Assembly (NCBI RefSeq): GCF_013315695.1
Contig: NZ_CP054353.1
DNA length: 64,000 bases
Origin: Escherichia coli
GTDB lineage: Bacteria; Pseudomonadota; Gammaproteobacteria; Enterobacterales; Enterobacteriaceae
Strand: one strand, 5' to 3'
Part shown: positions 33,454 to 35,045 of the stretch, one piece after another
Position numbering within the stretch: the first letter of the stretch is position 1
How the letters are laid out: each line of letters opens with the position of its first letter
Program-made: the position numbers and the translations under genes
The notes under the pieces: generated by a model
Told to the model about the DNA's origin: nothing
Seen by the model: only the letters and a program-made list of their open reading frames with translations
Databases searched by the model: none

Positions 33454-35045
33454 CTATAACCCAGGCGCTTTCCATAACGACGTCGTCAGTCCATGATCAA
33501 CCAGCCCCAGCTGATCCTGATAAACTGCCTGCCACTTATCGCGTGAATCCTGATAAAGTTCATGCTTTTCCGGGTCTGGTGTGTGCGTCCGTTCCCAGCG
33601 AACCAGGCGTTCTCCGGTTTCTGCTATTGATGAAAAAATTCCGGCACCGACGCCAGCTGCAATGGCACATCCTAATGCGGTGGCTTCTTTGACTACCGGA
33701 ATATTGACGGGTAATCCCGAGACATCAGCGAGAATTTGACTCCATAATTTCCCTTTTGAACCTCCGCCAGCAAAAACCAGCGAGGTGGGATGAATATTCG
33801 AGAAATCAGCAATTTGCTGCAAGTTACACGCTGATACAATCGCCGCATTTTCTTCCAGCGCACGAAACAATGTCGCTTTGTTACATTTATCCGGGTCAAT
33901 GGACAAGTTAATAAAGGAAGGTGCGGCGTGATACCAGGTTTTAAAGCGCATTCTGTCGGAGAAGATCGGCATTACGCCCCACGACCCAGGCGGCACCCGA
34001 CTGGCCATCTCTTCCAGCAGCGTATAGGTGTCGATGCCTAAACGTTCGGCAATCAGTTTTTCTTCGGCACAGAAAGCATCGCGGAACCAGCGCATGGTGA
34101 GTCCGGTAAAAAAGCTTATAGATTCAGCTTGTACCATGCCAGGAATAACATGGGGATTAACGCGCACGTTCATTTCTGGGTCTGTCACCGGCGCGGCTAA
34201 GTTTACAACTTGCTGCCAGAATGTACCGCCAAGAACCGCGGTTTGTGCCGGACGGACAACGCCTAACCCCAGGCAACCAAGTTGCACGTCACCTCCTCCA
34301 ACGACCACCGGAGTGCCGCCTTCAGACCGCAGAGTTCCGCCGCTTGTGAACTTACCACGCCCAGCAATGTGCCGGTTTCTTTGACAGGAGAAAGAATATC
34401 GGCACGCAGGCCAGCCATATCCAGCAATGCAGGTTTCCAGTCACGGGTGGTTAGATCAAGAAGTCCCGTGGTGCCAGCGTTAGAGGGATCCACCGCCAGT
34501 TCGCCGCTGAGCATATAGGCCAGCCAGTCGCTGATCATGGTGATGGTCGACGCCTGTCGGTAGATATCGGAACGATGGTGCGCCAGCCAAAGTAATCTGG
34601 GGATGGCACTTAAAGCCAGCGTTTGTCCGGTCGCGCGATAAACTTCGTTTTCAAAGGTATTGTTGTGCAGTTCTTTAAGTTCGCTAACTTCGCGCGCCGC
34701 TCTGGCATCCACATTGGCGCAGGCCCAGATCGGTGTTCCTTCATTATTATATAAAACAATGCCTTCACGCATCGAACATGCCGAAACGGCAGCGATATAC
34801 TCCGGGGCTATGCCGGCGTTGTGCAGCGCCTGGTGCATACACTCACACGCCAGTTGCCAGTTTTTGTTGAGATCAAATTCCATAGAACCAGGAACGTCCG
34901 GTACTGCCAGGTGCCGCCACTCCGCCTGTCCCACGGCTATTTGATTGCCTTCCAGGTCGAATATCACAGCCCGAATACTTCCGGTGCCTGCATCCAGCGC
35001 CATCAGGTAGTACTTTGATTCTGAAGGGGTAAAGAGTCGAGCCAT
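33454..35045 (-). pseudogene. lsrK: Autoinducer-2 kinase gene inactivated by a 1 bp frameshift near 34315
   Basis: N-terminal 243 aa (34263-35045) and C-terminal 284 aa (33454-34308) are FGGY-kinase halves in different frames; span 1592 bp versus 1593 expected. Confidence 0.85.

Follow-up and report, generated by a model that had tools for sequence, protein, structure and literature searches.

The lsr locus, which encodes the uptake and processing of autoinducer-2 (AI-2), lies within the window, by which we mean the whole 64-kb stretch of Escherichia coli DNA that was analysed. As expected for the genomic context of an AI-2 kinase, lsrRK is divergent from lsrACDBFG. The sequence-only reading of this DNA held that LsrR, LsrACDB, LsrF, and LsrG are full length, and all of these proteins do have the same lengths as in K-12 (LsrR, 317 amino acids; LsrA, 511; LsrC, 342; LsrD, 330; LsrB, 340; LsrF, 291; LsrG, 96), with 1-9 amino-acid substitutions each relative to K-12. 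The only lesion inside the window's lsr locus is in lsrK, on the minus strand at 33454-35045, which is 1592 bp long instead of 1593 bp as in K-12. lsrK is split into a 260-amino-acid open reading frame that begins with ATG and a 284-amino-acid open reading frame that begins with GTG; these are in different frames and share 46 nt (34263-34308). The features of the region are as follows.

32459..33226 (no strand assigned): IS1, 227 bp downstream of the lsrK stop codon
33454..35045 (minus strand): lsrK pseudogene (autoinducer-2 kinase), 1592 bp, from its open reading frames and its identity with MSB1_4I and AF3
33454..34308 (minus strand): C-terminal open reading frame, 284 amino acids from the GTG at 34308 (277 amino acids from the GTG at 34287), which carries FGGY_C
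34263..35045 (minus strand): N-terminal open reading frame, 260 amino acids, with native residues 1-243 and most of FGGY_N
34263..34440 (minus strand): stretch of 178 nt in which both lsrK frames are open
34316..34317 (minus strand): deletion site, the GG that is left of the ancestral GGG, from the alignment with MS 21-1
35114 (minus strand): SNP tied to the frameshift clone, 10 nt past the stop codon of lsrR, in the spacer between lsrR and lsrK
35124..36077 (minus strand): lsrR repressor, intact, 317 amino acids, 2 substitutions relative to K-12
36078..36325 (no strand assigned): divergent lsrR / lsrA control region, 248 bp, 3 differences from K-12
36326..42125 (plus strand): lsrACDBFG, all full length

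The nearest intact allele of lsrK is that of E. coli MS 21-1, which reads AAG GCG GGC ACT CCG (K A G T P) where the window has AAGGCGGCACTCCG. (The surrounding sequence of lsrK, on the minus strand from 34325 to 34308, is CTGAAGGCGGCACTCCGG.) Around the lesion, the two alleles have a single difference in 172 aligned columns: one G is gone from the GGG run in codons GCG-GGC, which encode A243-G244, and the remaining GG is at 34316-34317. Both halves of the window's lsrK are identical to the intact allele except for this missing G. If the G is put back, the encoded protein matches the E. coli LsrK of PDB entry 5YA0 across residues 1-530 (E = 0, 1204 bits). As it stands, lsrK does not have a single uninterrupted 530-codon open reading frame that joins FGGY_N to FGGY_C. 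The N-terminal product would be native up to A243 and would continue with 17 out-of-frame residues to a TAG at 34265-34263.

The sequence-only reading had proposed that lsrK is lost to a frameshift of 1 bp and that the remainder of the operon is intact. It had reported that the two halves overlap at 34263-34308 and that the locus is 1 bp short, and we found the same overlap of the open reading frames and a length of 1593 bp for lsrK in K-12. The alignment with the intact allele, with one G missing and identity over the rest of the 172 columns, agrees with the proposal, as do the K-12 lengths of the other genes.

Distribution of the frameshift

We searched the 5426 complete genomes of E. coli in RefSeq for the 61-bp stretch around the deletion site, which is present in 4162 of them. 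The deletion is found in just two, MSB1_4I (from a rectal swab in Australia) and AF3 (from a blood culture in the UK), and the remaining 4160 have the extra G. The window's lsrK is 100% identical to the lsrK of both genomes, which NCBI's annotation pipeline (PGAP) already labels as "lsrK, frameshifted". In a broader set of public contigs, which covers NCBI, ENA metagenome, JGI, and Logan read-run assemblies from several countries and includes gut metagenomes, the exact 260-amino-acid truncated product is found on 644 contigs (indexed in 1099 blocks). Among its carriers are several OZ-series chromosomes, an NCTC strain, KTE69, and KTE143. For the intact protein of this lsrK allele, the count is 62 contigs.

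The carriers of the frameshift have 0-2 SNPs relative to the window over 10.7 kb of the lsr locus. They share the deletion and a G at 35114, while the relatives with the intact allele have an A and no deletion. In every locus that we examined, this SNP and the frameshift are perfectly linked. The A is also found in a divergent locus (L022). The SNP is probably a neutral hitchhiker. With 644 contigs and a shared linked SNP, the frameshift is a real, inherited mutation that is fixed in a clone, which answers the first objection that the sequence-only reading had raised against its own claim, a sequencing error. The best explanation for the distribution is that the carriers are a tight, internationally sampled, human-associated clone of E. 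coli and that the window is from one isolate. The nearest genomes outside of the clone are IAI39, CE10, and SMS-3-5, at 98.4-98.7%; these strains suggest that the clone may belong to phylogroup F.

We considered whether the window might be the RefSeq record for MSB1_4I itself, since the coordinates are offset by exactly 2,557,000, but we rejected this because of an inversion that is bounded by IS2, an extra IS5, and a few SNPs. The window is a separate isolate or assembly of the clone, distinct from MSB1_4I. Positions 1-24149 of the window are the reverse complement of MSB1_4I 2671452-2695600, and from 24150 onward the window corresponds to MSB1_4I from 2581150. The opposite orientation of window 1-24149 relative to MSB1_4I implies a ~90-kb inversion between two inverted copies of IS2. 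One IS2, at ~24150-25480, interrupts a fimbrial usher gene in the window. The IS5 (60528-61722), whose open reading frame at 60674-61654 encodes a 326-amino-acid InsH-type transposase, separates the IIC gene from the IIB gene in a cellobiose-type PTS operon and is missing from the RefSeq record for MSB1_4I.

Consequences for LsrK and AI-2 uptake

LsrK from K-12 (PDB 5YA0-5YA2) belongs to the FGGY family. The repaired protein of the window aligns to it over all 530 residues, differs at very few of them, and has the same architecture (FGGY_N and FGGY_C) and the same lsrRK / lsrACDBFG synteny. Unlike in K-12, the window's reading frame is broken at G244, which leaves domain I disconnected from the GGGD motif and domain II. 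The Pfam domains of the intact protein are FGGY_N, which spans residues 13-260, and FGGY_C, which spans residues 298-467. The frameshift at G244 thus cuts off the last 17 residues of the FGGY_N model, including the conserved GGGD motif, which is out of frame with domain I in the window's lsrK. The aspartate of this motif (D253) aligns with D233 of XylB, the xylulokinase of E. coli, and D233 is the proposed catalytic base of that enzyme.

In structures of LsrK with HPr, the sugar is bound in domain I and ATP is bound in domain II (PMC5983913). Because the frame is lost at G244 and the ATP site is in domain II, the N-terminal product would lack both ATP binding and the conserved aspartate. As for the C-terminal half, a strong Shine-Dalgarno-like sequence, GGAGGAGGT, lies upstream of the GTG at 34287, where gene callers begin a 277-amino-acid product. 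GGAGGAGGT simply encodes the glycines of the GGGD motif and occurs in every lsrK. Translation from this GTG might conceivably yield a C-terminal fragment, but the fragment would begin at V254 and would not contain residues 244-253. No plausible C-terminal product would have both the conserved aspartate and ATP binding. The C-terminal open reading frame is probably untranslated, and probably nonfunctional on its own. The kinase is most likely dead through the loss of the GGGD motif along with the entire ATP-binding domain.

We believe that lsrK is a genuine loss-of-function pseudogene, which arose by the loss of one G at codon 244 in the ancestor of the clone; we estimate the probability of this at about 0.93. 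The real lsrK could instead be intact if a G was dropped from a short homopolymer during sequencing or assembly. The deletion is in a run of Gs, single-base deletions are a typical error of long reads, and the NCTC assembly that carries the frameshift (L006) has +1 insertions at two places in lsrR, in T and A homopolymers, that are likely artefacts. However, the run of Gs is just 3 bases long, and the identical truncated product is found on 644 contigs from many independent assemblies across NCBI, ENA, JGI, and Logan. Of the complete genomes, the two closest relatives alone have the deletion, and not the other genomes with the same local sequence; and the deletion co-segregates with both the SNP at 35114 and a 5-bp deletion in uidA (see below). 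The sequence-only reading had named a sequencing error as something that would overturn its claim, and the spread across 644 contigs and the linked markers rule this out; we see virtually no chance of an artefact.

It had also named programmed frameshifting, in which a programmed -1 ribosomal frameshift or transcriptional slippage would restore full-length LsrK. The downstream frame is -1 relative to the frame of the ATG, and as both frames are open for 178 nt (34263-34440), a -1 shift anywhere in this overlap would join them. But only a shift at codons 243-244 would retain the GGGD motif, and the 178-nt overlap contains neither a slippery heptamer (X XXY YYZ) nor a homopolymer of at least 5 bases. 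Furthermore, the open reading frame is uninterrupted in 4160 of the 4162 complete genomes, so the interruption is a recent derived state and not a conserved recoding signal. With no signal in the scan of the overlap, we rejected recoding, which is also exceedingly improbable. The remaining way to keep the activity is a split enzyme, with domain I and domain II both made as separate polypeptides that reassemble into an active kinase. The break is near the boundary between FGGY_N and FGGY_C, and the GTG at 34287 that gene callers chose follows an AGGAGGT-like sequence. But this sequence is simply the glycine codons that every lsrK has; the alternative GTG at 34308 does not have a good ribosome-binding site; and residues 244-253, including D253, are missing from both the N-terminal fragment and the fragment that begins at V254. 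Also, AF3 went on to delete the region from the 3' end of lsrD through lsrG, which is compatible with a nonfunctional system but does not prove it. Because any fragment from the GTG at 34287 is without D253, we rejected this rescue, and we consider a split enzyme to be very unlikely.

If LsrK is inactive, then what would happen to AI-2 uptake? A K-12 strain in which lsrK is knocked out "does not internalize the signal", and since the inducer is phospho-AI-2, both its sensing and its uptake of AI-2 are impaired (Brito et al. 2013, PMC3595036). By analogy to published lsrK knock-outs and to K-12, we expect that AI-2 uptake is absent from the clone and that the operon is permanently repressed by LsrR. 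A truncated LsrK without the GGGD motif and domain II would leave AI-2 unphosphorylated, and without phospho-AI-2, LsrR would stay bound and lsrACDBFG would stay repressed. The sequence-only reading gave the same chain from the missing kinase to bound LsrR to the absence of AI-2 import; this is the established model, which we infer applies to this strain as well. lsrR is upstream of lsrK in the lsrRK transcript, so we do not expect a polar effect on lsrR. The cells would presumably go on making AI-2, but without importing it or sensing it via Lsr. The gene for AI-2 synthesis, luxS, lies outside of the window; more than 99% of genomes in the species retain it (Keizers et al. 2025, PMC12263705). 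The silent remainder of the lsr operon would be expected to erode, and AF3 has already lost the region from lsrD' to lsrG.

Decay of the surrounding region

The window contains about ten pseudogene features, as well as copies of IS1, IS2, IS4, and IS5. The IS1 that is 227 bp from lsrK is absent from some of the carriers of the frameshift (L005, L007, L009, L010, and L013). Since only some carriers have this IS1, it postdates the frameshift and did not trigger the loss of lsrK. Elsewhere in the window, the autotransporter that adjoins lsrK is cut by an IS4, a fimbrial usher is cut by an IS2, and uidB/uidC is cut by another IS1.

uidA (beta-glucuronidase, 10963-12769, plus strand) is also frameshifted, with open reading frames of 149 amino acids (10963-11412) and 466 amino acids (11369-12769). 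The lesion is a 5-bp deletion near 11369-11412, and of 5330 complete E. coli genomes, AF3 and MSB1_4I are the only two in which it also occurs. We predict that the clone is GUD-negative. The C-terminus of uidB and the N-terminus of uidC are missing (12766-15310), with an IS1 at ~13838-14606, by either insertion or deletion. The whole glucuronide operon is decayed. Thus, the clone has fixed at least two frameshift pseudogenes (lsrK and uidA) within the 64-kb window.

There are two copies of IS4 in the window (19995-21430 and 29108-30545). One of them joins fumA (annotated as fumB) directly to ydeQ-type fimbrial genes, at a place where the K-12 map has fumC and tus. The second copy interrupts the ESPR autotransporter gene adjacent to lsrK. 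These positions suggest that IS4 mediated a rearrangement in the lineage.

Two apparent lesions in other lsr loci were rejected. The split of lsrA in one locus (L024) is a scaffold gap (a run of Ns). The split of lsrR in the NCTC carrier (L006, GCA_900448625.1) might have been secondary decay, but it is probably due to assembly errors: the +1 insertions are at window-equivalent positions 35518 and 35710, one of them in a run of six As and the other in a run of four Ts.

Drift, selection, and other losses of lsr

Loss of AI-2 reception is well documented in E. coli. Among 44 genomes of E. coli and Shigella, Brito et al. (2013, PMC3595036) found at least 8 independent inactivations of lsr, and 17.6% of 34 lsr pseudogenes were due to indels of 1-2 bp. 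IS elements flank only the inactivated lsr operons, and the natural strains with incomplete operons all lack a functional lsrK, save for a few in which only the transporter is impaired (PMC3595036). They summarize this theme as "conserved signal production but labile signal reception" (PMC3595036). The clone resembles these cases in that AI-2 reception was lost independently by a small indel, with functional lsrK gone, and the inactivating indel has been inherited by descent in natural isolates. IS elements are also present in the flank of the operon (IS1 at 227 bp, with IS4 and IS2 further away), and decay followed in AF3. Unlike those cases, the allele with a G deleted at codon 244 and the clone itself are not among the 44 genomes, and lsrK is the sole lesion in an otherwise pristine locus, which indicates a very early stage. 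The lsrK frameshift is thus an ordinary and already known kind of event, an instance of the documented loss of AI-2 uptake in E. coli, and it was already flagged in RefSeq. New here are how the frameshift is distributed at the level of the clone (644 contigs against 62) and the fact that sister strains have independent lesions in lsrB (described below). This adds one more clone-level example, of modest weight, of E. coli keeping AI-2 production while repeatedly losing uptake.

In phylogroup B2, over 95% of genomes are without the lsr locus (Keizers et al. 2025, PMC12263705). As in B2 strains such as 83972, we expect that the clone produces AI-2 and does not take it up via Lsr. However, B2 strains retain less than 100 bp of lsr, while the clone retains the full locus minus one base. 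Keizers et al. classified lsr loci by the length of the BLAST match to the 8,673-bp locus of K-12 (PMC12263705), and in such a screen, the clone's lsr might well score as full length. One-base lesions may therefore lead BLAST length screens to undercount Lsr-negative strains outside of phylogroup B2.

The sequence-only reading had described the lsrK frameshift as a specific loss and not random decay. This is correct in that the rest of the lsr locus is intact, but lsrK is one lesion among many, and its surroundings are decaying. With the 5-bp deletion in uidA, the IS elements, and the truncated genes in the same clone and window, a specific loss in the sense of a targeted or selected loss is undemonstrated. 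The mutation in lsrK was most likely fixed by drift or by hitchhiking in a lineage that was gathering IS elements and pseudogenes. Selection for the loss of lsrK is possible, and the two frameshift pseudogenes are explained equally well by a targeted loss and by drift or a bottleneck in an IS-rich lineage.

An adaptive loss would mean that AI-2 uptake was selected against in an extraintestinal or human-associated lineage, in convergence with the lsr-negative B2 strains, and it might also have helped the frameshifted branch to outnumber its intact sisters. The frameshifted form is indeed sampled about 10 times more often than the intact form of the same allele (644 versus 62 contigs), but contig counts mirror sampling effort, not fitness. 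Close relatives with intact lsrK carry independent lesions in lsrB: MS 21-1 (L003/L020) has a nonsense mutation (W170*, window-equivalent 40395), and another locus (L018), whose contig is seen in 10 samples, has a 1-bp deletion (window-equivalent 40000). On top of the lsrK frameshift, AF3 (L001) has an extra deletion of 2361 bp from the 3' end of lsrD through lsrG (window-equivalent 39785-42145). Strain 83972 becomes less fit when lsr is restored (PMC12263705), and Brito et al. argue that lsr is lost faster than expected under neutrality (PMC3595036). Against this, the clone also fixed the uidA deletion and many IS lesions, as expected under drift or a bottleneck, and the flanking autotransporter, hipA, and the fimbrial usher are decaying faster than lsr in the same relatives. 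On balance we doubt that the loss was adaptive.

A broader form of this idea is that the lsrK deletion marks a widespread, human-associated, non-B2 clone that became Lsr-negative by a mutation that might escape presence/absence screens, and that together with the lsrB knock-outs in the sister strains, it reflects positive selection. We offer this as a tentative and rather unlikely proposal. If it is true, the clone would be a point-mutation parallel to the wholesale loss of lsr in phylogroup B2. Whether drift or selection fixed the deletion, the carriers and their intact relatives differ across ~10.7 kb of the locus by the deletion and a few SNPs. They form a natural near-isogenic pair, which could be used to ask if the loss of AI-2 uptake brings a fitness benefit.
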